Source: a virus
Lineage: Duplodnaviria; Caudoviricetes
DNA length: 64,000 bases
Virus record (IMG/VR): IMGVR_UViG_3300033074_000806
Span: 32,001 to 96,000 of that record
Strand: one strand, 5' to 3'
Positions 4,877 to 33,700 of this stretch are shown one piece after another; positions within the stretch are counted from its first letter, which is position 1, and each line of letters begins with the position of its first letter. Below the pieces are notes generated by a model that was not told where the DNA came from, searched no databases, and saw only the letters and a program-made list of their open reading frames with translations. A program made the translations under genes and the position numbers.

Positions 4877-6478
4877 ATGGCGAACAGTGATTTTCTTCCA
4901 TCCGTTGAGCTTACCCTCAACGACCTTGGGCTTAGAATAGCGCCACCACCCGCTGGTCCTAAATTGACTCTATTAGGTATTACTAGTAATACTACTCTAC
5001 CTATACGTGAGCCAATGACGGTCAGCTCAGCTGAAAAAGCAATGAACGCTCTTTATTTCAGCGGTGCATCTGGTCCTACTTTTCCCGGGGAATTAGCTCT
5101 TGCGATCGAAGAGGCAACGGCAGCAGGAGCCCCAAACATTGAAGTAATAATTATCGGGACTTATACTGGTAACCCCTTACTTCAATATATTTGTCCAACT
5201 GGAACTGGCTTACGATATAACGATCTCTCAGGAGCTTATGAGGTTCTTAAGAATAGAGATATAGACGTAGTTGTGCCCGTTGGTGCCTATATCGATGATA
5301 TAAAGACAGGCTTAACTGCTAACACTAACTATGGTGTTCAGTTAGCTAATTTCTTGTATCAATCAACCAAGTCCCAGAACAGCGCAGTTGGTGTAATAGC
5401 TACATCTCCTGTTGTTTACTGGGCAATCCAGCGGTATACAGGGCTATGCCTTGATATAACCGGTGGTGCAGCTAGCAGAGATCCAAGTCTTTTTGCTGAA
5501 ATGACTGGGTTAGCAAACGTAGACGCTTCTGGTTCGATCAGAAATGTTTTCTTCTCGACACCATCGACTACGCTAACCAATGAATGGCTTGCATATCATT
5601 CTTACTACCAGACAGGCTTAACTCCTGCTTCAGTTCTAAGTGGCTATTTTAAGACTTCAGTTTTCAGCGGCGTGTATTACAATACTGCCTACATTTCCTA
5701 TCTACATGGATCATATGACCTATCATTCAATAGATTCGAAAATGCTGCTACCTCAAGTCAATTAGCAGGTGATTATTTTACTTACTGGCAAGCTCGTGGA
5801 TCTGATGGAGCTTTTGCAACTGATGGAAGAGGCGTTAAGGTTGATGCTGGAGCGTATATTAGCGTATTCTGCTCACCAGTTAAAACTGCAACAACTCAAA
5901 CTAGCACTCTTTCAACTGTTTTAGGCGCTTCAATATCCAACTCTTACCATACTACAGCCGGTGCTGCAGCCTATGGTGGGGCGATACTCAGCTTAGCTCC
6001 TCAATCGTCTACTACAAACAAGCCTATTGGTGGATTAATTCCATTGAAGACAATATCAGCTGCTCAAGCTAATATTTTGACAGGGCTAAGACTAGTTACA
6101 ATGTATACTAGATCTAAGGGATTTGTTGTAGCTAGTGGTGTTACTGGAGCTTATAACGTCAATCAATACTTAAGATCTGACTTTGTAAGATTAACTACAG
6201 TAAGAATTGTCCACACCGTGGTAGATCTAATCAGAGCAATAGGTGATAAGTTCCTAGGTGAGCCAAACAACGCTCCTCAAATGAACGCACTTAATGCCGA
6301 GATAGATCAAGTATTACTAAGTATGAAGTCAGCTCAAGCTCTAAATGGATATGACTTCGTTGTATCCTCAACCCCAGAACAACGTGTTCTAGGACAGGCT
6401 GATGTCAGTCTAACTTTAGTTCCAGCTTTTGAAATTACTAAGATCAACTTAACAGTTTCACTTGCTGATTCTATCTAA
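4877..6478 (+). CDS. contractile tail sheath protein
   Basis: N-terminal LPSVELTLND. C-terminal sheath signature LTTVRIVHTVVDLIRAIGDKFLGEPN...IDQVL...GYDFVV...ADVSLTLVPAFEITKINLTV. Directly precedes the tube gene. Confidence 0.9.
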   Translation: MANSDFLPSVELTLNDLGLRIAPPPAGPKLTLLGITSNTTLPIREPMTVSSAEKAMNALYFSGASGPTFPGELALAIEEATAAGAPNIEVIIIGTYTGNPLLQYICPTGTGLRYNDLSGAYEVLKNRDIDVVVPVGAYIDDIKTGLTANTNYGVQLANFLYQSTKSQNSAVGVIATSPVVYWAIQRYTGLCLDITGGAASRDPSLFAEMTGLANVDASGSIRNVFFSTPSTTLTNEWLAYHSYYQTGLTPASVLSGYFKTSVFSGVYYNTAYISYLHGSYDLSFNRFENAATSSQLAGDYFTYWQARGSDGAFATDGRGVKVDAGAYISVFCSPVKTATTQTSTLSTVLGASISNSYHTTAGAAAYGGAILSLAPQSSTTNKPIGGLIPLKTISAAQANILTGLRLVTMYTRSKGFVVASGVTGAYNVNQYLRSDFVRLTTVRIVHTVVDLIRAIGDKFLGEPNNAPQMNALNAEIDQVLLSMKSAQALNGYDFVVSSTPEQRVLGQADVSLTLVPAFEITKINLTVSLADSI

Positions 6479-6493: not shown

Positions 6494-7189
6494 ATGGCTA
6501 GTTCACAAGCTCAAAGAGGAATAGCTCCTTCTGGTGCAGGTAGAAGCGCGGCCTCCTTCCAAAAAACCTATAACTCCTTTTCAGGGGTTGATATGGTTGT
6601 AACGTTTGGAGGTAAAGTTATAGGCGAGTTGCAAGGCCTATCCTATACAATACAACGCGAAAAAGCTCCGATATACACTATGGGTTCAGCTGATGCTAGA
6701 TCTTTCTCTCGTGGAAAGAGAGGTATCGCTGGATCTGTTGTATTCGTAGTTTTGGATCGTTCCGCTCTACTTGAGACCATGAGAGATGTTCCGTATATTG
6801 CTAACAAGTATGATATTCCACTTGGATTTGCAATAAATGATGTAGACATTCCAACTATAGAAATTGGAACAGGTCTAATCGGTTCCGCTAGCGGCTCTGC
6901 AAATATAACTATCTCAAGAATAGTTATAGATAAAGTTCTCGCTAGACCACAATATCTTGACCAGGTTCTACCTTTCGATATAGTCATTACTGCGTCCAAT
7001 GAATATGGAGCATTTGCTAACATGAAAATTCATGGTGTCGAAATTTTGAATACTGGTTCAGGCATGTCTATTGATGATATTACAACAGACGAAGCATGCA
7101 CATTCGTAGCTACTTCTATAACTCCTTGGAGCAACCAAGGATTTATTCGAACCACGAATGGCGGAACTTCAGCTGAGATAATAACCTAA
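6494..7189 (+). CDS. major tail tube protein
   Basis: SFSGVDMVVTFGGKVIGELQGLSYTIQREKAPIYTMG...SFSRGKRGIAGSVVF...PFDIVITASNEYG...GMSIDD...TFVA. Follows the sheath and has a strong RBS. Confidence 0.8.
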   Translation: MASSQAQRGIAPSGAGRSAASFQKTYNSFSGVDMVVTFGGKVIGELQGLSYTIQREKAPIYTMGSADARSFSRGKRGIAGSVVFVVLDRSALLETMRDVPYIANKYDIPLGFAINDVDIPTIEIGTGLIGSASGSANITISRIVIDKVLARPQYLDQVLPFDIVITASNEYGAFANMKIHGVEILNTGSGMSIDDITTDEACTFVATSITPWSNQGFIRTTNGGTSAEIIT

Positions 7190-8040
7190 TGGCCAGTAAC
7201 CCAGCGATTATAAAGAATCCAAACCTGCTTCAGCAGCGTCTGAAAGAGGGCACTCTTGGACAAGTCAAAGAATCTTCATACGCTGGGGCTGATATATTAG
7301 CTTATATCAATATTCCACTATTAGATGATCCTACCCAATTATCCTCAAATACACCTAGTGCTAGGATACTTGGTGAAATTCAAACAATCTCGATTTCTTC
7401 TACGAGATCTATATCGCCTGTTAGAACACTTGGGCGATCAAATCCCATTGGGTATACTCGTGGAGGAAGAACCTTTGCTGGCACTCTAGTATTTGCAGCA
7501 TTTGGAAGAGATGTTTTTTCTGATCTATATCGCCCAGACATTGTTGAAAGCTTTATAGATAGCAGCACAAGTCTTTTTGTTGATCAACTCCCACCTTTTT
7601 CTATAATAATTACAGCCTCTAACGAGCTCGGCGGGTTGGCTCAACAGATTATTTCGGGTATTACCCTAGTTAACTATGGTGTCACATACAGTATCGATGA
7701 TATATACACTGAAGTTTCCTACACTTATGTAGCCACTGATGTAACACCGCTATTACCTATTCAAGTTATGAGAGGCCTGGCTAATAGGCCCGCATATAAG
7801 ACTCCCCTAGACATAGGGTTGACAGATCTTCCTAATATTAAAGCATCAGATCGAAATAAATTTGATGGGACCTCTCAACACTTAAAAAGCCCCCAGAATA
7901 TACTACGTAGTTCTGAGGCAATTAATTTAGAACAAGCAAACGGCCTAATACAGGATGAGTTCTTTTGGACTCGTTCTGCTGGTAGAAACACTATACAAAG
8001 AACAGGATCTAGGCAAAGCTTAAGAGATTCACTAAGATAA
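7189..8040 (+). CDS. tail tube paralog 2 (tube initiator/minor tube-like)
   Basis: Clear paralog of the previous ORF: SYAGADI...LGEIQTISIS...PVRTLG...YTRGGRTFAGTLVF...DQLPPFSIIITASNELG...YSIDD...YTYVA. Confidence 0.75.
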   Translation: MASNPAIIKNPNLLQQRLKEGTLGQVKESSYAGADILAYINIPLLDDPTQLSSNTPSARILGEIQTISISSTRSISPVRTLGRSNPIGYTRGGRTFAGTLVFAAFGRDVFSDLYRPDIVESFIDSSTSLFVDQLPPFSIIITASNELGGLAQQIISGITLVNYGVTYSIDDIYTEVSYTYVATDVTPLLPIQVMRGLANRPAYKTPLDIGLTDLPNIKASDRNKFDGTSQHLKSPQNILRSSEAINLEQANGLIQDEFFWTRSAGRNTIQRTGSRQSLRDSLR

Positions 8041-12700: not shown

Positions 12701-14031
12701 TTGCCCCATATAGCACTGCTTATCAAAAATATCTAGCTAAAATTGGGAATCCTGAGAGATATGCTCCGTATTGGCGCGATAAATTAAAAGCAGCAATAAC
12801 TCAAAAGGATACTATTGTTAATCAGTTGTATCAGTATGAAAGAATAAAGCCAGGTATAAATGATTTAAATAGTAAGACTAAAGCTGGCGGATTCTATCAA
12901 ATGCTGCAGAAGGGATGGGATTCGTTAACACACGATGTCTTAGCAGAAATTCCATATTTTGGTAGTAAGTTCGCTCCATTTAGAGATGCTTTAGAAAGAT
13001 ATGAAAAAGAACAGATATATGGAGATAGCTTTGCTGATTGGAATAGACCCTGGGAAACTATAGTTCGGCCAGCTATTTATGATACTGCAAGATCAAATCC
13101 AGTATATGGGGCTGCTAAGGGTGCTATAATCGGCGCCCTAATGAGCAATGCTATTCCAGGAGTAGGCGGTTCATTGTTTAACCCTGTTGTAGGTCTTAGA
13201 AATTCAGCAACTGCTATACCATTCTTTGGAGCTGTTGGCGCAGCTTTAAGCTTAGGTAGATCAGCTATTACCGATCAGCATTTCGTTCCGCCACATAAAC
13301 AAAGCGAAATTGAAGCTCAAGACTATATGGATAGAGTTGTTTACGCAAAGGCTAGATCTTTTGAAATAGCGGCAACAGAGATGGGCGATAAAGAGCTTGC
13401 CAGCGGCTATGCCCGTCTAGCTGGAAAAACACTAGTTGGAGCAACTAGCCAACGTGGAACAAAATCAGCTTTAAACTCCTTTGATAGAAAGTATTTTGAT
13501 ACTTTTGTAAATAGTGAAGAAAGCGGAAGATCGGAATTACTAGCAAGATTGCCACAATATTATGGGCACGCGCTCAATAAAGTCTGGTCTAATGACTATG
13601 GCACAGAGCGTCAGCACGATTTAGAGACATTAGAATACTTTAGCAATAACGCACCACCGTCTACAGATTCATTAATATGGCACCCATCTGTTCCAACTTC
13701 TGCTTTGAAGATTAAAATGATTCAGGGCGGAATTAATGGCGTTAGTGATAACCTACATCGATTTGGATTTTACGAAAGTCAGGGCCTAGAGGCGGCTGAT
13801 AGATTCCCAAATGTCAATTTTATGACTACTAGTAAAATTAGCTCGCCCAATTTTAACTCGCTAAAAAACGATATACAGATTAATTTAAGACGACTAAATC
13901 CATTTGCTAATCCTGAGAATGTAAAGATCAAACAAATACACAATAGCCAATATAATCAAGCTTACGAGATAAGTCAAAAAATTGATAGAAAGCAAGAAAC
14001 CTATAGATACATGAGCGATATAATGAGATGA
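9754..14031 (+). CDS. large tape-measure/ejection-type virion protein (1425 aa)
   Basis: GTG start. Follows the chaperones. Largely helical and basic, with Gly-rich hydrophobic segments at 9805-9867 and 13108-13257. Conserved-looking blocks VPVRRGALWGMGYQPFFGG and GDPYAKLESGDSRLPGVGYEALNP...ILSDVAPYS. Confidence 0.55.
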   Translation: MADSFNQEANNQKAENSGILTSILAGLGVIGLGQIIYGRAGKGNLIADLLHFTGNTLRGKGIDLKYAANAGKSRPTSGASAGARTVLDTSIDVRTGALRLDDLSIVKDLVYQARVIGASSASDQRSALTELTKNAIAARYKQSNVVSFFGQKLERLTVGEVLADQKRFQQSIGKNSWEVIRSAEERGIIKKDYILDTRIFATSKGIRDTRLKPLGKSILKNVDFLGLSSVVKAVTIGADQRFGILPGSAGGPLKFFIDGDIYSFSRSKEGVLKTNKVPGKFILRDANDPLHVATRLRSGEAYVEDPKPTNLYNKLQSALGIGTAYRNRDSLFTSIFINPIKRLRALETGEGILYRKPYKKTTSAAAEAAFGDIAPEAFGADNYVKTAGQQTPKLSELKFLDRLKVTFGVHDELAIIKARSYREKLRFNKVLTNTDLVVPRPTGRVKNVDTFFASKLSGQVIDAANSYTGAGEVTNRLKSKFYTARAGLGNKVLDFTNYAITRLNSLASGSLAGIGFKVSGSIKTNLFRLAGIPLAYEGIKETAGYLDYLSESTIGVSPLKLLGDAYATARVAQQKFREITGIQQLMKTAEEDFPGAVNSELGFFGRTAAAPFLTFMKGVKSGLGVKKSGILAGVMEFLFGGSSPEQTSEELSKEYSGITKVPVRRGALWGMGYQPFFGGDIQYYDYSWYYKMQSDYKTKSLYGSREEYYTKHANVLGIPLPTPSNLFGIRNLFNNYALEEANYYRRPYQETAGMFDEFPIFGPMLSATVGQLIKPTKKMHVSELYGLPAQTASLVDRTLPLNSAKRLGITDIPVTEMMLQDSSDPLVRLQQQAAIATEPLGIYQFILTYLGVNLKYNQANDPASASIMGSAGRELYDSNLGGFFGQTEFIRRFFPSEKYLASKQRQLYNPLRNLMPTWLPGIGSEEKSDQDYFMDFLHGDPYAKLESGDSRLPGVGYEALNPLYSNMPGVYSDVDRFLILSDVAPYSTAYQKYLAKIGNPERYAPYWRDKLKAAITQKDTIVNQLYQYERIKPGINDLNSKTKAGGFYQMLQKGWDSLTHDVLAEIPYFGSKFAPFRDALERYEKEQIYGDSFADWNRPWETIVRPAIYDTARSNPVYGAAKGAIIGALMSNAIPGVGGSLFNPVVGLRNSATAIPFFGAVGAALSLGRSAITDQHFVPPHKQSEIEAQDYMDRVVYAKARSFEIAATEMGDKELASGYARLAGKTLVGATSQRGTKSALNSFDRKYFDTFVNSEESGRSELLARLPQYYGHALNKVWSNDYGTERQHDLETLEYFSNNAPPSTDSLIWHPSVPTSALKIKMIQGGINGVSDNLHRFGFYESQGLEAADRFPNVNFMTTSKISSPNFNSLKNDIQINLRRLNPFANPENVKIKQIHNSQYNQAYEISQKIDRKQETYRYMSDIMR

Positions 14032-17000
14032 AAGAAATAATTGATAGGTCTCGTCAAACGTTTAATAAACTGTTCGATACTATAGGTAAATTCGGCAGTA
14101 AGTATGATGTTTATAACTTTACTGCATTCGATACTGAAACAAACGCGCTATTAAAGGGCGATGCTAAACTAGGTGCCCAAACAGATATCTTTAAGCAGGG
14201 CGCATCTGGCATAAGAACTATATTTGCTAGAAAGGCAGTTTTTGATAGATTTGGTAATGTAAAGGATGAATCAGCAGTCCATTTATTGATGGGTGGTGGT
14301 AAGATATCTACCCAAGGTGAAAAGTTCTTCAAAGATGTTGGGCTAACAATAGATAGGATTCTTCCTAACTTTGAAACCATCCCCAGTGAATATAGAGAAA
14401 GATTAAGAGGTAAGGCCTTAACTAATAGATCTCTTAACTATTTAGAGGCTGTTCAAAAGAAAACAGGTAAGAAATTATTGACAACTGAGGGCGAGCTAGC
14501 AGATGTTCTAAATAATATGCTAGGACATTCAACTAATACTATGAATGTCGCTATTGGACATAACGCTAGTAGATTCGATTTGATGATGGCCAGAGGTGTT
14601 AAAGGATTTAAGGGTGTAGGCAGCTCTACACATATCCTAGATACTTATGAGCTAACCACTAGAATGTTCCCTGAGCTAGCAGTAGAAAAGACTGGCGCCC
14701 TAGAACTAGATAATCTTATATCTTTAATGATGTATGAGTCTGGTAATAAGACTAAAGCTAAAATAAAAGATCCACTAAGACAGGCGACAGCCACTGAAGT
14801 TGATGCTCTAAAATTCTATGGAATTGATAATGTTCCACAAGAATTTAAAGCAGTATCAAAAATGTTTGGCGGTTCAACTGGAGTTCTTGCTGCCGGCGCA
14901 CATAGTGCCGATGTTGACTCGTTACGGTCTATGGCGATACTACATGCTGCTATGCTAAGAGCAGAAACATCTAAATCAGCATCAGAAATCTTTCATGGTT
15001 ATCTAACTGAGATCGGTGTCAAAGAACATCTATCTGCTATAGATATAATGAGTCGTATTAAGAAATTTGATCCTCAGCAAGTTTCTAGATACATGAATGT
15101 TGGAGGATATAAAGGTAAGATAAAAGACCTATTTGATATACTACAATCAGGACAAACTAGTATAGATGATTTAACTATTTATTCCAGATCTGGAATGAAT
15201 GAGTTATTTTCTGAATTAGGTAATCGATTTGGAAAAGGATTTGTATCCTCGTTTGCCCCAACAGCTAGAGCACTAGCAGAAGGGATGGACGCTGGAGTTT
15301 TCATGCTACGTGGAAACTCTCTTAAGTTTGGTAGGTTGGGAGACGCAGCATCTTTTATTTCCCTACCAACGCAGAACTTTAATAAGTTAGGCAATGGATT
15401 AATAAATATGGGCGATAAGCTTCGCTCAGTGACTAATCTATTAAGCCTAGGAAACAATAAAACAACAGTAGTCCCTTTTAGCCGATTCTTCTATTCTAAT
15501 ATGAATAGAATAATTGGAAGTGGTTTAAATCCTACTGATAGCAATGCTGCATATGCACTGCCAAATATAGTTAGACAAACGCTAGGAACTAAAGTATTTG
15601 GAACTAAATCACTGGGCTCCTTATTAGGATCTCATCCAACAGAGATGGGATTACCGAACTTCTCTGCTATTACAGCAAAAGCTGGAGTCTTACAGGTTAT
15701 AGAAAGTAATGCGCCCATTGTCCAGCATTATAAAAACCTCCAACAAGGAATACAATTAAGAAACCTAAGCATTGGGAATAGCCTTTCTAACTTTAAGAAA
15801 GCTAGAAAAATAATCGAAAGCAGCATCTCTGGTATCAGTTCTGAGCTTAATAGGCTAGGCATCGGCGCACAAGCAGCTTTTTCCAAAGCTGAGTCCCTAT
15901 TAGATGATGGATTAAAGTTAACTGTCGGCAGCTTATTAAGTGATATGACTATTCCAGAGGTCAGAGGCTTTGAAAAAGGTCGGCTAAGAAGACTTGGAAC
16001 AATATCCAATAGCCATACTGCGCGGTTAAGAAAACTTGGCAGACCTGTAGGTCCGTCTGTAATTTCTGAAAAGTGGGAATCAGCTGGCATAAGAAGCTCA
16101 TTCCAAGGCGGCGTATTTGTTGCTGAGTTTGATACGATGTCAAATTTAAGATCTTCATTTGAAGATTCAGCTGTATATGCTAGCAGAACTGGTTTGAATC
16201 TATTAAAGCAAAAAAGATATGCAGGTAGCGTAACTTTAAGAGACTGGTCAGCTAGAGACGTAAGTTTATTAAATCAATATTTAGATCCAACAGGAGCATT
16301 TAATTTAGAGCCTGGTATCGATTTTAGACCAACAGATGAGTCTGGTTATTTTAAAGTTCGTAATAGAAGAATGTTCTCTGATAAACGCAGAGAAATCGCT
16401 GCTGAATTATTTAGTGGAAAATCTAAAATTCAAAGACGTGTATTAGAGCAAATTATACGAGGCAGAGCAGCTTTGTCCCAAGCTGTGTTCACAGAAGATG
16501 CAATACAACTAAAATTTGCCACTAGAGCGTTTACAGGCAGTAGATCAGATAGCATCTTACTGGGCCCGTTGGGATCTCTTAGAGCCACAGTAAATGGATT
16601 TGTTGGCGGACGCATTTCTAAACTGATGCGCTCAATTGGAGCTGACTTCATCATGTCAGCAGAAAACTTAAAAGGTGCAGCCCCAGCTGATTTAATTACA
16701 CAGCATAGAATTTCATTGGTTCAGAGAGAAGGTGCCTTAGATGAGCTAGTTGGTTTCTTTAATTCTCAACGAGATGGATTTAGACTCGCACCGTCTAGTG
16801 TTCCTGGTGTTCGCACTCTAGTAATGCCATCTGGCGTAACAAAAGATGAGGTTCTAAAGTTTACTGAGCTATTCAAAACTCATTTAGTTAAAACTGCCGC
16901 TGAGCATTTGGATAAAGATAGAACACGTAGAACCTTAAAAATAATACGTGGGTATGATGGTATAAGAGCATCAGGCAATGTCATAAGAAAGATAGCTAGC

Positions 17001-19436
17001 ATAGGCATGAAGGGCATAACTTCTGCTTCTAGACTATTCTTGACAGATATACATCTTAGATCCGATGCATCTGATGTTAACAGATTAAATAACGTTAGAT
17101 GGAATGCCAGCCATATAAATCAGTATAAGCAATCCTTAGCAGCTACAGGAATCTCTGGTAACTCTGTATCTAGATTCTTAGAACAAGCTATGGCTAGAGC
17201 GACTGGATTTAGCTTATCAAAGGGCGTATTAAATCCTGGCCGACTAGGCTTTATTGGTCAAGCAATGACTGGCCAATTACCTTCTGATGCCTATATCCTA
17301 CGATTAGGAGCCAATAAGCAATTCTTTGATCAGCATGGAACCGCATATTCATTCCTGCCCAAGGTTGGTTCTGGACACGTATTAACTCCAGAAAGCTTAA
17401 AAGGAACAATCTACGATACTAACTATTCAGATCGTCAATTTTTTATCGATTTTGGACAAGCTGAACGATTCTCAGTTAGAGGAAGAAAAGAAACACAGGT
17501 ATCTACTAGATACTTACCAGTCCCAAATTTAAGAAAAATACTAGGGGTTAAGGTCGGACCAGGAGGTGCTCATGTATCTTCTTCGTCACTGGCTGGTAAA
17601 GTTTTTAGAGCTATAAGAGCTTATTCTAGTGAAGGTAATTTAGATGTAGTTCACACTCTTAAAACTGGTGGCAGATATTCTGTTAGAGACACTATATCGG
17701 CTGCTATGGATAAACTTATATCCAGCATACCAGGTAAGAAAGGACTAGCAAAGTCACTTACAACGTTCTCCATAAAAGAATCTGTAAACGCTAGATTGCT
17801 AGGTAAAGCACCCACTGGAAATTTAACCGACGCGTTTATTGCTGAACTAGATTCGCGGCAATTTGCTGAATGGGCTCATGTAAAATTTGGTAAGGAGAAA
17901 GCTCAGAAGTTTTTAGCAATGGCGGAAAATGATGCCCTTTATGGATTCGTAAGGGCAGATCCTATGCAAAAAGGTGGCCATGCAGCTATCATAAAATATA
18001 AGCTGATAAATCGTGGCAGGAATCCTAATGCAAAAATGGATGTGGCATTAGATCCTTATCTAGTTTCTAGACTAAATAGAGACGTTGATAAGGATGCTGT
18101 CAGATTATTGCTATTCGATCAAATAAGTGCCAAGGATTTGGAGCTTGATTTTAATCAACAAGTTGCTGCCCATGCTGTAGACTTTAATACCTATCTAAAG
18201 AATCTATCTAATACAAAAGCACCATCCATTAATGGCATACTAACCAACTTTATAGAGTCGGCAACTAAGGGTTTTCAACAAAGCTCAGACACACTAACAG
18301 CCCACCTCGGCATGAAGATGAATGCCAGCCTTGGATATACTCTATCTAAGGCTCCAGAAAGTATACTGAATAGGGCTTTAGAAGCTAAGTCTCCTGAAGA
18401 CTTAATTAATATACTAACTAGTAGAGGCGTAGATAGAAATTCAATTAATGATGAGATCATTAAAGCACTTACTGAACAAAGCAAAGATAAGACCGCAGCT
18501 GCTATAGAACTATTCCAGTCCTTTAAGCAGGCTGGAGTTAAGAAGGGTGCAGTTAAGACTGCAATGTATGATTTAATTGAAGAGGTTACTGGACTAATGG
18601 AACGAATTCGTTCTGGTAGCAGTAACTTAAGTGAAGCTATTGATGTTAGCTCTAAGGTATTTACTAACTTTTTTCAGCAGATAGCTGGCGAAGATTTAAT
18701 AAGACCTAGCTCCGCTGCGAAATTTTTGACTGATAATATTCCTGAAAGTGCCGGTAAGCTAGTTGGAGAAACTTATGGTAGAGCTTTTTTTGCTGTCTCC
18801 TCCTTAAGAGGAAAGGTATCTGATGCTTTATCTATGACTAGGGCAAATGCGCCAGATACTAAAGAAATTTTAGGAGCAACATTAGAAGCAGATCAGACTT
18901 CTCTATTAGATGATGTAATGGGTGAGTCAACAGTTGGAGATGAAGTTCTAGAATCATCTACGCAAAAGCTGAGAGCAAGTTTATCATCTAGAGCCGGTGA
19001 GTTTATTGGAACACAACTTGGTAATGCCAGAAACTTCTTGCGTTCTGATGGTGGCAGGTTAGCTCTTTGGGGCGCTGGATTATTAGGAGCGTATAGCTTA
19101 TTCTCTGCTATGACTTCTAATCCTGACGAACTTGCGCCACCTCCGTTACAGCTAAATCAGACTTCTGCGCCATTGCCTCCACCTCCAATGTTGCAGCAAC
19201 CGATGGACTATGGAATACAAAATGTTCCCCAGCTTGATCAAAAAATTGCTAGGATAAGTCCAACACATCCTGCACATATGCCGAGACAATCAAAAATTAG
19301 ACACTATACGCGCCACAGCCCTGGATACCCTTCCGCAAATATCAATGGCCGTATAGAAGATGATACTAGTAGTATGAATAGTGCTATTATCTCTCAGAGG
19401 ATGAAGCACATTGCAAATAGCGATTTCGTGTATTAA
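14028..19436 (+). CDS. putative virion single-chain two-barrel RNA polymerase fused to an N-terminal DEDDh 3'-5' exonuclease (1802 aa)
   Basis: Exonuclease motifs: FDTET (D35,E37), GHNASRFD (D184), HSADVD (H292,D297). Beta-like: FVAEF...FEDSAVYAS (E712,D713) and ADFIMS. Beta'-like: YLPVP (1162), GKKG (1236), RADP (R1309), LDPYLVSRLNRDVDKD (D1352/1354/1356), bridge-helix-like KMNASLGY (1430). All occur in canonical order. C-terminal hydrophobic helix and poly-Pro. Confidence 0.75.
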   Translation: MKEIIDRSRQTFNKLFDTIGKFGSKYDVYNFTAFDTETNALLKGDAKLGAQTDIFKQGASGIRTIFARKAVFDRFGNVKDESAVHLLMGGGKISTQGEKFFKDVGLTIDRILPNFETIPSEYRERLRGKALTNRSLNYLEAVQKKTGKKLLTTEGELADVLNNMLGHSTNTMNVAIGHNASRFDLMMARGVKGFKGVGSSTHILDTYELTTRMFPELAVEKTGALELDNLISLMMYESGNKTKAKIKDPLRQATATEVDALKFYGIDNVPQEFKAVSKMFGGSTGVLAAGAHSADVDSLRSMAILHAAMLRAETSKSASEIFHGYLTEIGVKEHLSAIDIMSRIKKFDPQQVSRYMNVGGYKGKIKDLFDILQSGQTSIDDLTIYSRSGMNELFSELGNRFGKGFVSSFAPTARALAEGMDAGVFMLRGNSLKFGRLGDAASFISLPTQNFNKLGNGLINMGDKLRSVTNLLSLGNNKTTVVPFSRFFYSNMNRIIGSGLNPTDSNAAYALPNIVRQTLGTKVFGTKSLGSLLGSHPTEMGLPNFSAITAKAGVLQVIESNAPIVQHYKNLQQGIQLRNLSIGNSLSNFKKARKIIESSISGISSELNRLGIGAQAAFSKAESLLDDGLKLTVGSLLSDMTIPEVRGFEKGRLRRLGTISNSHTARLRKLGRPVGPSVISEKWESAGIRSSFQGGVFVAEFDTMSNLRSSFEDSAVYASRTGLNLLKQKRYAGSVTLRDWSARDVSLLNQYLDPTGAFNLEPGIDFRPTDESGYFKVRNRRMFSDKRREIAAELFSGKSKIQRRVLEQIIRGRAALSQAVFTEDAIQLKFATRAFTGSRSDSILLGPLGSLRATVNGFVGGRISKLMRSIGADFIMSAENLKGAAPADLITQHRISLVQREGALDELVGFFNSQRDGFRLAPSSVPGVRTLVMPSGVTKDEVLKFTELFKTHLVKTAAEHLDKDRTRRTLKIIRGYDGIRASGNVIRKIASIGMKGITSASRLFLTDIHLRSDASDVNRLNNVRWNASHINQYKQSLAATGISGNSVSRFLEQAMARATGFSLSKGVLNPGRLGFIGQAMTGQLPSDAYILRLGANKQFFDQHGTAYSFLPKVGSGHVLTPESLKGTIYDTNYSDRQFFIDFGQAERFSVRGRKETQVSTRYLPVPNLRKILGVKVGPGGAHVSSSSLAGKVFRAIRAYSSEGNLDVVHTLKTGGRYSVRDTISAAMDKLISSIPGKKGLAKSLTTFSIKESVNARLLGKAPTGNLTDAFIAELDSRQFAEWAHVKFGKEKAQKFLAMAENDALYGFVRADPMQKGGHAAIIKYKLINRGRNPNAKMDVALDPYLVSRLNRDVDKDAVRLLLFDQISAKDLELDFNQQVAAHAVDFNTYLKNLSNTKAPSINGILTNFIESATKGFQQSSDTLTAHLGMKMNASLGYTLSKAPESILNRALEAKSPEDLINILTSRGVDRNSINDEIIKALTEQSKDKTAAAIELFQSFKQAGVKKGAVKTAMYDLIEEVTGLMERIRSGSSNLSEAIDVSSKVFTNFFQQIAGEDLIRPSSAAKFLTDNIPESAGKLVGETYGRAFFAVSSLRGKVSDALSMTRANAPDTKEILGATLEADQTSLLDDVMGESTVGDEVLESSTQKLRASLSSRAGEFIGTQLGNARNFLRSDGGRLALWGAGLLGAYSLFSAMTSNPDELAPPPLQLNQTSAPLPPPPMLQQPMDYGIQNVPQLDQKIARISPTHPAHMPRQSKIRHYTRHSPGYPSANINGRIEDDTSSMNSAIISQRMKHIANSDFVY

Positions 19437-27445: not shown

Positions 27446-28600
27446 ATGGGAATAAGACCAAGAACATATAATGAAATGGTATCCGATGCCATAACTTACC
27501 TATCAAATAATACTAATATAACATATCTAGAAGCAGGATCTATTGCCAGAGCATTAGTAGACGCTACTATGCTAGAAGTCGCTAAGCTACAAGATTTCGT
27601 AGTTACTAATTTTGAAAACTCATTTCTTTCAAATGCTAAAGGGCCATATTTAGATATCATTGGTAATAGCTTTGGTATAGCTAGAAAGCTAGAAGGTCGT
27701 GCCAAAGTTTACAAAGAAGATGCTGCCATTAGGTTCTACGTAAGATCTGGAACACTCGGCCAAAGACTTCCACATCCAACGGATAATACAAAAGGACTAA
27801 TTCCAGCAAACACGACTGTAACTAATCCTGACGGAACTGCACAATATTCAGTATCAGAAGACTTGTTGTTTCCAATCAATGCCAAAAGTGTTTATGTAGA
27901 CGCTATAGCCAGCTCAACTGGATCTGCAGGAAACATTGGCGTAAATCAATTAACCGTCAATAGCTTAAACATTTCTGATGTCTACTCTACTAACGATATT
28001 ACTATTACCGTAGGATCAGATCAAGAATCTGATGATGCCTATAGGTATAGAATAAGTAAGGCTTTTACTACCAAGTTTGGTGCTACTTCAGCTTCTATAG
28101 CTACAGCCGCTAATTCAATTGCTGGCGTATCAGTTTCGGAGCTAGTCCCATTTGCTAGAGGAGCTGGAACTTTTGATGTCTTATTAGTTCCTCGTGGCAA
28201 TAGATTAAGTAAATCCACTAAAGATCAGGCTTTGCGCGCAATCGAGTCTGTGACTGCTTATGGCATCTCAGCTAGAATAAAAGAGCCAGAGTATATACCT
28301 ATCTGTTTAACTGTTAAGTTGCGCTTTGCTTCAGGAACTGAGCAGGGTGAACAAACTGCGTTAAGAGATTTAGTCCAGAGTGTTATATTGAACTTCTTAG
28401 GTGGTATAAAAATAGGTGGCGAATTAATTATTAATCAACTAAAAGCTGCCATATTAAACACTAATCAGCAAATTTTAGATGTCAATATATTAGAGCTTTG
28501 CATAGACGGTCGGCCCCGAGGTATACGGGATTATAAACTGGCTAGCGATGAGCTTCTTATACCAGATGAAGACAATAGTGACCCAATACAAGTATTATAG
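27446..28600 (+). CDS. baseplate J / Mu gp47-like wedge protein
   Basis: GSIARALVDA, FLSNAKGPYLDIIG...GIAR, TGSAGNIGVNQL, GSDQESDDAYRYRI, RGAGTFDV, IKIGGELIINQL. Confidence 0.92.
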   Translation: MGIRPRTYNEMVSDAITYLSNNTNITYLEAGSIARALVDATMLEVAKLQDFVVTNFENSFLSNAKGPYLDIIGNSFGIARKLEGRAKVYKEDAAIRFYVRSGTLGQRLPHPTDNTKGLIPANTTVTNPDGTAQYSVSEDLLFPINAKSVYVDAIASSTGSAGNIGVNQLTVNSLNISDVYSTNDITITVGSDQESDDAYRYRISKAFTTKFGATSASIATAANSIAGVSVSELVPFARGAGTFDVLLVPRGNRLSKSTKDQALRAIESVTAYGISARIKEPEYIPICLTVKLRFASGTEQGEQTALRDLVQSVILNFLGGIKIGGELIINQLKAAILNTNQQILDVNILELCIDGRPRGIRDYKLASDELLIPDEDNSDPIQVL

Positions 28601-30702: not shown

Positions 30703-33700
30703 ATGTTAAAGCCATCTAAGTTTGCTAGTAATCGTCCGAGACGTGGTGGTAACCTCCAACACGGTGGATTTTTATATACTCAAAGATCTACAGCGACTTA
30801 TCAAACAGAACTAACACTTACAAATGGTATTGTAAGCTTTACTTTTCAACAAGATAAAGCCACAGGCGTTCGCTTAAAGAGTTGTAAGTATCAAAATAAC
30901 GCTGAGATTTTAAATAGCACTTCATCCTTATGGGTTGTGCATGCAAACGCTGGTGAATTTGATGGAGAGTCATATGGAGTCTATCCCAGTGCCTCCACAT
31001 TCCAGTCTTCTTCTTTTGCTATACAGACGTTTTCTGGTGGCAAAAAAGCAGTATTTGTTTGGCGTAATGTCTATTTAGAACAGGATAAGAATCTATTATT
31101 TGACGCATATTATACTGTCACTTTATTAGACGGCTCTTCTCATCTCGATGCTTCTCTAGAATTAAGAGAGCCAGTAACGATATCTTCTATACCTACTATG
31201 TCTCAAGAGGTGGCTCTTGCAGCAGTATGTGTGTTGAACTTAGCCCTTCTTGATCCTACAGATGATAACAATGATAATTGGATGTTTACAACTCCAATGG
31301 GCTTAGGAGATACTGTAACTAATCCTATCAAAAATTTGAGAACTAACCTGCCTGTTCCAACTGTAAGCACAGATAATGGCAATCTAATTCAGGCTGGTGG
31401 GACTATTCTAGATGAGAACTACTACCCAGTAATTTTTTGGGCTCAGCCGACTCAATCACCAAAAGCCAGCACTTGTAGAATGTCTACAACTCATCCTGGC
31501 TTTATGTATATCCCGATGCTATCATTGGGAAATTCTTCGACTAAGAATGGTCTTTTGATCTATGCAATGGATCCAGATGGTCTTTCAGCAAAGAATTTTC
31601 AATGGTGGTCTGATGGTAGTAAGCTTCGCATACAGATCTGGGATTACTCTAACTATGAGGTAGATCCACACGGCCTAGGAGGAGAGTCTTCTATAGGTAG
31701 TCCTTATTCATTACGTTGGACTGCTAGACTTCGTCCTTTTAAGAGTCCTACAAAGCATGTTGATTTTTATGGACCCATGCTATATAGAACAGAAGCAGTT
31801 CCTAATCAAACCTATATAACTCAGCCATTATGGCAAAGAGCTTTAAGCGGGGAGATTGATCAACGAAGCGCCGAATCTACATTATTTTTACTCACTAGCT
31901 ACTTAAAAACTGGTGATGGCGCAACCTTTATTGATGCATTAACTACCTATCAAAATTTAATAAAGACCGGCTTTATGGTAGATTATACGCCATTAGTATG
32001 CTGCCATGCTATGGCAAATAATGGACTACCTGCAACTGGTCAGACATGGAGCTGGTTTAGCTTTGCTACTGGTGCAACGGGTGTCTTAAACAACTATAAG
32101 TTGCCGGATGTATTGCCACCTAACCCAGTCTGGTCCACAGTCTGGGATAAGTTAGCGGCAAGTGGCGCGTCTGTAAATACTTATGTAGTAAAGAACGTAG
32201 TTCAGCCTTATGATACTACAGTAATGATTCCTTATTCTGGTTATGATCTAATCATAAAAGGACGAAATTACGCTGACTTTATAATGACTAAAGACCGGTT
32301 TGAAACTGGTGTCAGCTTTGCCGAAGGTGGTAATAGCATCTTCTCTGTAGATCAAATTGGATGCTGGACAGCACCACTGATTAAAAATCAATACTACAAC
32401 ATATTTAAAACTCTAGCACAATCTGGAACACATATGTATGCAGATACCCTAGGAAATTTTCCTGGGTGTTATGCGCATAATCATATCTATAGAGAGGCTG
32501 GAACACTAATAAGCTATACTCATCCTAGAGCTGGTTACTCTAGGTTCTTCAATGAGTTAATATATCAAGACTATATTTCTGCTTTTAGATCTGGGGCGTC
32601 TGGTTATTTAAGTAGACCAAATGCGACCAGAACTGATCTTTTATCAACAGCCGAATTCCCAACTGATATTTATTTAAGCTATAAGACTAGCGCATCTGCT
32701 ACTAGAGTTGGGGACAACTTCCATAAGCAGCACTATTCTATCAACCCATTTGACGCCTCGGCTTTTTATCGACTATCACCTTATTGGCATCTATTAACGC
32801 CCACTATGTTTATAGTGCATGGCAATAGATTCTATAATGGTGGATACTACGCACATGGTGGTAATGTTGGAGATAGTAACAATCAATCCTATATATACTC
32901 AGGATTTAGTGGCTTTGGACCTGGCATAACTACTACTTTTTATACTACGACAGACAGAGCTTTTAGATCTACCTGCTTCTCACAAGGCCTAGCTAAAGAA
33001 GCTTTGTATGGAGGTAGAGTAGTAATTGACCATAGAGGGGCCGAGTCTACCGGTGATGCTGGCATTGGAACTGGCATATTTACAAGAGAATCTTCTTGGA
33101 TTACTGGTAGTAATTGGACAGGTGTTTCTAGCTTTATTTCCGAATGGTTTAGAGTTGTGGGTGTAACTAAAGAATATCAGCCACAAGGATTGCTATACCC
33201 ACCGCTTGAAAATTGGGCCTGTGGGGCAACTGGCCATGCATTTAATTATGAACAAAATGCAACTAGATTTTCTAGACACACTGGGGCTTCTGGAGAAGAC
33301 GCAATTCTGCACACAGTAAGAAAGCATAGATCCAGAAGTAAATATTTGATAACAATGTTAAATTGGACAACTGGATCTACTACATTCAGTGGACAGTTTG
33401 TTCCAGCAGTTTACGGTATAAGCGGATCATATGACGTATCTAGAATTTATACAGTAACTGGAGAAGTAGATCCACTAACACCAATTTCAATTGGAGATAG
33501 AATTTTACAGGCTAGCAAAACTGGCGGCGACTATCTATTCCAAGTTACTATACCTCCTAGATCTAGCTATTTGCTCGAAGTCACTCCAAAGAGTATAGTC
33601 GGCAATCTAGCATATATTGATTTAGTTAGTAACTACATTAATGTAAGATACTCATATAATGCCACAGTCTTAGCTGCTGTTTCTATGACTATTGGTTATA

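Follow-up and report, generated by a model that had tools for sequence, protein, structure and literature searches.

Does a giant open reading frame (ORF) in the tail module of a jumbo phage encode an enzyme that joins an exonuclease to an RNA polymerase (RNAP) and, if so, on what would such an enzyme act? The question is raised by a 64,000-nucleotide stretch of viral DNA (Duplodnaviria; Caudoviricetes), positions 32,001 to 96,000 of the IMG/VR record IMGVR_UViG_3300033074_000806, hereafter called the window. An earlier reading of its sequence (the original prediction) had placed there an intact 3'-5' exonuclease of the DEDDh (DnaQ/RNase T-like) type, fused N-terminally to a putative two-barrel RNAP. 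We call the encoded protein P0001. With a probability of roughly 55%, we favour the reading that P0001 is a protein of the tail-module slot usually given to the tape measure, that it is ejected from the tail, and that it carries a DEDDh domain and a polymerase-like core. In that case, an enzyme with both nuclease and polymerase parts may enter the host by injection from the phage.

The N-terminal part of P0001 is probably a real, strongly diverged DEDDh domain with a complete catalytic set and two large inserts, one between ExoI and ExoII and the other ahead of ExoIII. All six motifs that the original prediction had read were recovered by script where it had placed them, in one ORF, and the five catalytic residues, which comprise the metal ligands and the general base, are all present (Table 1). 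We compared A2, the N-terminal alignment of the four known members of the P0001 family, by hhalign with a DEDDh reference profile of 11 sequences (E. coli DnaQ and ten DnaQ-like exonucleases from phage-record matches). The comparison gave a score of 34.8 (P 2e-4), a match of moderate strength with HH-suite probabilities of 46% (whole domain) and 78% (core), and in a greedy alignment aa (amino acids) 25-326 were collinear with profile positions 2-188. D35, E37, D184, H292 and D297 pair in register with D12, E14, D103, H162 and D167 of DnaQ, and the ILDTY...MFPEL segment aligns on KVTDSL...KMFP. As controls, the remaining 360-column windows of the protein scored 11-17 against the same profile, the reversed A2 scored 12.0 and 150 column shuffles scored 13.9 +/- 2.3 (maximum 21.1); the true score is 9 standard deviations (SD) higher than the shuffles. 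Searched singly, the segments each found their own motif region as the best match (ExoI, P 0.024; ExoII-DT, P 1.8e-5; ExoIII, P 0.059).

The catalytic residues and the signature residues T38, N39, G177, H178, N179, R182, F183, D205, T206, A291 and A294 are invariant in the family member P0006, which is 36% identical to P0001 in the exonuclease-like domain and 28% overall. Of the ten 15-residue windows that are best conserved across the protein, four are exonuclease motifs. The only PHROG matches of three family members were phrog_403 and phrog_192 ('DNA polymerase exonuclease subunit'), at E 0.02-0.4 in the ExoII region, and an ESM Atlas feature search gave PF00929 as the nearest named clusters (score 0.86), which we treat as a lead. 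As in DnaQ, RNase T and the PolC exonuclease (PF00929), ExoI DxE, ExoII HN...FD, the DT strand and ExoIII Hx4D follow one another in identical order. Unlike in DnaQ, ExoI and ExoII are separated by ~140 aa and ExoII and ExoIII by ~110 aa, both much longer distances, ExoII is one residue longer (HNASRFD), and the domain, which falls below every curated threshold, has a tail protein as its fusion partner, whereas DnaQ serves a replicase. The ExoII spacing is presumably that of TREX1.

For the polymerase half, we consider it fairly probable that the region of aa 1309-1356 is RNA polymerase-like, of the two-barrel kind, because it holds invariant beta-prime-like motifs and gives weak in-register alignments to proteins of the same slot in Bacillus phages. 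The invariant runs RADPMQ and RDxDKD, which also lie in some of the best-conserved windows, belong to the longest in the 28%-identical pair, and the spacing L-x-P-x6-N-x-D-x-D-x-D is exactly that of beta-prime. Against a beta-prime profile, the best local alignment of aa 1295-1400 lay in register at the cognate segment (P 0.06-0.09). By hhalign, our family query A1 aligned in register over 170 columns with gp034 of the Bacillus phage KLEB27-3 (P 0.032), with LYGFVRADP paired with LYGFVNRYP and LNRDVDKD with LKADYDGD, and A4 aligned with the pair of slot proteins from KLEB27-3 and WH1 at P 0.047. The nearest named clusters to aa 1180-1520 in the ESM Atlas feature search were PF05183 RdRP (0.77-0.78), again a lead. 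Candidates for the basic residues of the second barrel are the invariant FED 711-713, K882 and GKKG 1236-1239, none of which was assigned by any alignment; the likeness of FED(S) to FEDS of E. coli beta (position 812) was noted by eye, and hhalign did not recover it. The conserved island AHLGMKMNASLGYTLSK could possibly be a bridge-helix-like element. At the far end of the protein, the C-terminal module aligns end to end with the C-termini of KLEB27-3 gp034 (hhalign P 3e-4) and WH1 gp095 (P 1.4e-3); hhalign did not detect it in gp146 of Bacillus phage 0305phi8-36 or in the slot proteins of phages ME3 and MTATph1.

The position of P0001 between homologues of gp145 and gp147 of 0305phi8-36 is new and firm. 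Its start ATG overlaps the stop codon of the upstream 1425-aa ORF (ATGA), the product of which, P0003, gives collinear blastp matches to gp145 (E 5e-25, 2.5e-20 and 3e-14). Downstream, P0002 is collinear with gp147 (blastp E 1.4e-10) and matches phrog_20474 at E 5e-33. PHROGs matches around P0001 identify a contractile tail module, in the order sheath, tube, tube paralogue, three small ORFs, three giant ORFs (1425, 1802 and 2121 aa), three small ORFs and baseplate J. The record of 0305phi8-36 has the same order: sheath gp139, tube gp140/141, chaperonins, gp145, gp146, gp147, a gpV-like and a gpJ-like protein. There, gp145 and gp146 are annotated as virion proteins by mass spectrometry, and gp146 as a 'hypothetical tape measure protein'. 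By analogy, the virion probably contains P0001 and ejects it. The phage is contractile-tailed, roughly 190 kb in size, and has tail genes like those of 0305phi8-36.

A tblastn search with P0003 retrieved eight jumbo-phage records from six phages, and we examined the slot genes of five phages, KLEB27-3, WH1, ME3, MTATph1 and 0305phi8-36. The slot proteins of KLEB27-3 (gp034) and WH1 (gp095), annotated only as structural proteins, resemble P0001 in that they follow the gp145 homologue, begin with a DEDDh-like domain with large inserts, and carry R-x-P...DxDxD near the C-terminal third. They differ from it in being ~600-700 aa longer, in having DYDGD or DHDGD rather than DVDKD, and in an ExoII with YN or QN rather than HN. 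Their N-terminus matches the DEDDh profile at P 7e-5, and PF00623 (Rpb1 domain 2, the NADFDGD domain) matches exactly at their DxDxD, below threshold in both cases (E 0.015 and top-ranked for KLEB27-3; E 0.09 and second-ranked for WH1). Direct similarity between their exonuclease-like domains and that of the P0001 family was not significant (P 0.14). In ME3 gp036, which has a polymerase-like motif, regular-expression and hhalign searches found no exonuclease motifs. Lastly, gp146 of 0305phi8-36 may hold a decayed exonuclease domain (hhalign P 9e-4). Together with MTATph1, these phages with named hosts form a series of both features, polymerase motif only, exonuclease only and decayed exonuclease. 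Thus, as judged from sequence, DEDDh-type domains recur in this slot; some lineages combine them with a polymerase motif and others do not. The idea that the exonuclease is present only where there is a polymerase motif was rejected, as MTATph1 and gp146 contradict it. The original prediction had proposed a survey of homologues for co-occurrence of the two domains; the MTATph1 protein, with an exonuclease-like domain alone, speaks against a strict tie between them.

A series of results weighs against the reading of P0001 as an ejected nuclease with a polymerase-like core, and several of them concern the N-terminal domain. The hidden Markov model (HMM) check that had been suggested for it turned out negative, in that no curated family model recognises the domain: Pfam, including PF00929, gave no match to it even at E 10, PF00929 gave none over the six-frame genome, and NCBIfam gave none to the domain. 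Scans with Pfam, NCBIfam and PHROGs of the complete protein, its N-terminal domain and shorter segments likewise yielded nothing significant. Searches of the PDB with the N-terminus, by phmmer and by family profile, yielded chance matches only. Among all ORFs of the genome, a plain HMM of our own DEDDh alignment put P0001 in second place with 7 bits, which is not discriminating, and nothing informative came from hhalign between A2 and the single E. coli DnaQ sequence. The AlphaFold2 models were of low confidence, with a predicted local distance difference test score of 33.5 from the single sequence and 42.7 from the four-sequence alignment, and Foldseek found no match to the second model at E <= 0.001. 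The order of strands and helices in the low-confidence model would be compatible with an RNase H-like fold; the sub-threshold Foldseek list consists mostly of proteins with RNase H-like folds (Argonaute PIWI, Hsp70 nucleotide-binding domain, Maelstrom) and is not counted as evidence. The DEDDh assignment of the original prediction is therefore upheld in its sequence-profile match and full catalytic set, whereas it gained nothing from structure prediction or curated HMMs.

These misses would also be expected if the DEDDh-like motifs were a relic or a chance constellation, the N-terminus then being a structural part of a tail-lumen protein without nuclease activity. The unusually long inserts fit that explanation, and gp146 is a case of how a domain of this kind can decay in the slot. 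Nevertheless, we give it a small probability: two lineages with 36% N-terminal identity keep all five catalytic residues and the signature residues beside them unchanged, the hhalign score that so clearly exceeds those of the shuffles comes with the correct register across all motifs, and a like domain recurs in the slot proteins of KLEB27-3, WH1 and MTATph1 at P ~7e-5.

Other adverse results bear on the polymerase-like region. No significant polymerase match to it was found in Pfam, PHROG or the PDB (PF00623, PF04997 and PF05183; 8H2M, 6VR4 and 2J7N), and hhalign gave nothing significant against the single sequences of E. coli beta and beta-prime. The top hhalign match of A3 to the beta-prime profile lies ~50 residues upstream of the motif, in a non-conserved stretch. 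By our own estimate, DxDxD is expected by chance ~0.3 times per 1800 residues. No similarity was detected by hhalign between P0001 and the phage's own YonO-like ORF (see below). A match to phrog_37419, a family without annotation, at the DxDxD region (E 0.004) recurs only in the family member P0005. PDB searches with P0001, A2, A3 and A4 returned SH2 domains, glutamate dehydrogenase and an EF-hand, which we set aside as chance matches. What survives of the proposed exonuclease-RNAP fusion is that both sets of motifs lie in one conserved ORF; the RNAP identity is one of motifs, with no Pfam or PDB match.

The same results are what one would predict if P0001 were an ejected slot protein with a genuine DEDDh nuclease and no polymerase, with DxDxD as a generic acidic loop that binds metal or has a structural role. 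On entry, the nuclease alone would then resect DNA ends or destroy host or defence nucleic acids; among DEDDh nucleases, T4 DexA and arenavirus NP have roles other than proofreading. The best PDB match of the aa 1295-1460 profile, which is not significant, is an EF-hand loop on NRDVDKDAV, in keeping with this alternative, and so are MTATph1 CDS27, whose domain matches the DEDDh profile at P 7e-5, and the decayed domain of gp146, both found without DxDxD. However, RADPMQ and RDxDKD are invariant, the beta-prime spacing is exact, and the region aligns in register with that part of the KLEB27-3 protein for which PF00623 is the top Pfam match (second for WH1). Furthermore, as we read the sequence, the acidic residue at position 12 of an EF-hand is absent. 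We regard a nuclease without a polymerase as unlikely, if by no means far-fetched.

As to the virion location of P0001, the evidence consists of its position and the homology of its neighbours, and neither blastp nor hhalign found any similarity between P0001 and gp146 of 0305phi8-36. Since P0001 lacks this similarity yet lies in the slot of gp146, we take it to be a different protein that occupies the tape-measure slot in a tail module of the 0305phi8-36 type.

If P0001 is indeed an ejected slot protein with both a DEDDh domain and a polymerase-like core, it would leave the tail along with the DNA, in the manner of gp96 of phage P23-45. Its C-terminal module would serve as an anchor at the envelope or channel. 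Transcription of the first genes, possibly including a gene for a YonO-type polymerase 24 kb upstream, would fall to the polymerase-like core, and the exonuclease would act on 3' ends at the entry site. Among the possible substrates, our tentative first choice is the 3' ends of nascent or backtracked RNA made by the fused polymerase; the 3' ends of entering phage DNA come second, as a possibility that we hold more loosely, host or defence nucleic acids seem unlikely targets, and it is improbable that the nuclease is catalytically silent. That three lineages have the domain fused to a polymerase-like core favours editing or trimming of RNA 3' ends. MTATph1 favours a role independent of the polymerase, with DNA ends or else host or defence nucleic acids as the target, since its DEDDh-like domain occurs without DxDxD and such a nuclease thus need not serve a polymerase.

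The fusion could also be taken at its most literal, as a two-barrel RNAP of the cellular type that is delivered with the virion and has its own DEDDh exonuclease; the exonuclease would work in cis at the transcript's 3' end, as a module for proofreading or 3'-trimming in the style of DNA polymerases. We hold this to be decidedly unlikely. To our knowledge, the two-barrel RNAP superfamily otherwise proofreads only with its own active site and Gre/TFIIS-type factors, and if RNA editing were true, P0001 would provide the first case of a two-barrel RNAP with a separate domain for proofreading. Should its targets instead be DNA ends, or host or defence nucleic acids, P0001 would represent a new type of injected nuclease.

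Proofreading DNA polymerases are classically laid out with a DEDD exonuclease at the N-terminus and the polymerase after it. The two-barrel core might accordingly make DNA, like archaeal PolD, with the DEDDh domain as its proofreader, which would make P0001 a DNA polymerase or repair enzyme delivered by the virion. No DNA polymerase of family A or B was found in the 130.6-kb source contig of the window, as this explanation would have it, but the contig is an estimated ~68% complete, so that a missing DNA polymerase means little. Moreover, the gene lies in the tail operon and not among replication genes, its closest relatives by motif have the RNAP-type DYDGD and PF00623 matches, and, as the original prediction had argued, P0001 retains the R and N with which beta-prime contacts the ribose. 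We consider a DNA polymerase very improbable.

The closest characterised relative of P0001, understood as an ejected nuclease with a polymerase-like core, is P23-45 gp96, a virion two-barrel RNAP fused to the tape measure (PDB 8H2M/8H2N; Chaban et al. 2024, PMC10770324), which was proposed to transcribe the first genes during DNA entry (PMC10770324). Both are giant proteins at the tape-measure position with DxDxD, hydrophobic segments and a similarity to RNAPs that is otherwise undetectable. Nevertheless, gp96 is siphoviral, has 5002 aa with the RNAP at its N-terminus and shares no detectable sequence similarity with P0001, whereas P0001 has 1802 aa, belongs to a contractile-tailed 0305phi8-36-like jumbo phage and has an exonuclease-like domain ahead of its polymerase-like part; the word 'exonuclease' is absent from the text of the P23-45 preprint. 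Other giant virion-delivered RNAPs within larger proteins are phi14:2 gp66, from a crAss-like phage (PDB 6VR4), and the N4 vRNAP (PMC10770324); they come from podovirus-type phages and have no sequence similarity to P0001. Our literature searches found no characterisation of the slot proteins of KLEB27-3 and WH1, and the name KLEB27-3 in no paper. In full-text searches we likewise found no description of a DEDDh plus two-barrel fusion, in agreement with the original prediction, which had known of none that was characterised. Thus, a tail-borne two-barrel virion RNAP is a known kind of protein, with P23-45 gp96 as its one characterised case, and the fusion of a DEDD domain to a two-barrel polymerase is undescribed in the literature that we found. 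The fused nuclease would be a new functional module at phage DNA entry.

The family of P0001 is compact and extremely diverged, with four sequences among ~15 billion proteins. The only relatives found, P0004 and P0005 (1800 aa each) and P0006 (1814 aa), are full length, and their gene order is identical to that around P0001. A phmmer search with aa 1-340 over 1.84 billion representative proteins returned these three and two other matches, which were dropped as artefacts of TPR repeats. Word-index searches and scans of viral, metagenome and genome contigs brought no further relatives, and no relative of the exonuclease domain that stands alone or has another fusion partner was found by sequence in those searches. 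Neither P0001 nor its N-terminus had a match by tblastn in 50,697 phage records; two matches at E ~1 in Helicobacter prophages, to a 373-aa hypothetical protein, were discarded as chance. Tail synteny of the 0305phi8-36 type locates such genes even when no HMM sees them.

Table 1. P0001, its motifs and neighbours, the slot proteins of related phages and the second polymerase-like ORF. Coordinates are positions in the window, except where a sequence label is given.
Feature	Residues or size	Coordinates	Strand	Remarks
P0001, whole ORF	1802 aa	14028-19436	+	Uninterrupted; tape-measure slot of tail module
DEDDh (DnaQ-like) exonuclease-like domain	aa ~1-320	14028-14987	+	hhalign against DEDDh profile
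ExoI FTAFDTET	aa 31-38 (D35, E37)	14118-14141	+	D35, E37, T38, N39 invariant
ExoII IGHNASRFD	aa 176-184 (H178, N179, D184)	14553-14579	+	G177-H-N and R182-F-D invariant
ILDTY strand and helix start	aa 203-207, MFPEL after	14634-14648	+	D205, T206, F214-L217 invariant
ExoIII GAHSADVD	aa 290-297 (H292, D297)	14895-14918	+	A291, H292, A294, D295, D297 invariant
FED(S), candidate beta-like barrel element	aa 711-714	16158-16169	+	F711, E712, D713 invariant
Conserved island DSILLGPLGSLRATV	aa 841-855	16545-16592	+	Second best-conserved 15-residue window
RADPMQ, candidate counterpart of beta-prime NRAPTLH	aa 1309-1314	17952-17969	+	Six consecutive invariant residues; RADP itself at aa 1309-1312 (17952-17963)
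NRDVDKD, candidate metal-binding DxDxD of beta-prime-like barrel	aa 1350-1356	18075-18095	+	R1351, D1352, D1354, K1355, D1356 invariant
Conserved island AHLGMKMNASLGYTLSK	aa 1425-1441	18300-18350	+	Joint second best-conserved 15-residue window, 11/15 identical
C-terminal module: hydrophobic helix, Pro-rich stretch, conserved tail	helix aa ~1676-1697	19035-19433	+	Best-conserved window of the protein
P0003, upstream giant ORF	1425 aa	9754-14031	+	Homologue of 0305phi8-36 virion protein gp145
P0002, downstream giant ORF	2121 aa	19439-25804	+	Homologue of 0305phi8-36 gp147 (hub, annotated 'endolysin')
Sheath		4877-6478	+	PHROGs
Two tail-tube paralogues		6494-7189 and 7189-8040	+	PHROGs
Baseplate J		27446-28600	+	PHROGs
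vB_BauM_KLEB27-3 gp034	2434 aa			N-terminal DEDDh-like: YDTEI, GYNVHNFD, HFGLSD; polymerase-like RYP...DYDGD
vB_BceM_WH1 gp095	2515 aa			N-terminal DEDDh-like: FDIEN, QNINTYD, HMALQD; polymerase-like RYP...DHDGD
Acinetobacter phage ME3 gp036	1603 aa	L108:16337-21148		Polymerase-like REP...GGDHDQD
Moorella phage MTATph1 CDS27	1309 aa	L107:15849-19778		Internal, well-preserved DEDDh-like, aa ~860-1075: LDLETT, QNVVGFD, HEALTD
0305phi8-36 gp146	2537 aa	L105:12623-20236		ExoI-like YLDIETTGLSG near aa 1222, ExoII and ExoIII degenerate; no polymerase motif
YonO-like ORF, RDPSLP...GGDYDGDD	710-782 aa	contig (G000:C1) 5246-7594, also L020:447-2795	-	~24.4 kb before window start

Like P23-45, the phage has a second, small ORF of presumed two-barrel type, the YonO-like ORF of Table 1. 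PF05183 (RdRP/YonO type) matches it just below the cut-off (E 2.7e-6, 22.1 bits), and in the control genome, that of B. subtilis, this model likewise gives a signal of that kind below threshold. Its best PDB match, which is not significant (E 0.77), is 8F72, the non-virion RNAP gp64 of P23-45, aligned at DYDGD. This ORF probably encodes the non-virion RNA polymerase of the phage. A YonO-like enzyme was listed in 0305phi8-36 by Iyer and colleagues (PMC7824862). By analogy, the presumed set of two polymerases fits the scheme of P23-45, the precedent for a tail-fused virion RNAP next to a non-virion RNAP (PMC10770324).

Some further features of these modules were noted. P0002 is devoid of any Pfam lytic domain, while gp147 has NlpC/P60, M23 and SLT domains. 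Both tube paralogues match phrog_9206, which is labelled 'major head protein'; this label seems to be a propagated misannotation, because gp140/141 of 0305phi8-36 are named 'major head protein' and noted as 'tail tube'. In MTATph1, a transposase gene (L107:19875-21362) directly follows CDS27, and the slot gene may have been interrupted by it. In the source contig, ~97 kb (9.1-106.7 kb) form a single plus-strand block almost without family matches, as noted at window positions 30703-61191 and for the contig as a whole. The block contains many further giant ORFs (1498, 1175, 1689 and 1581 aa) and makes for an unusually large structural arm.

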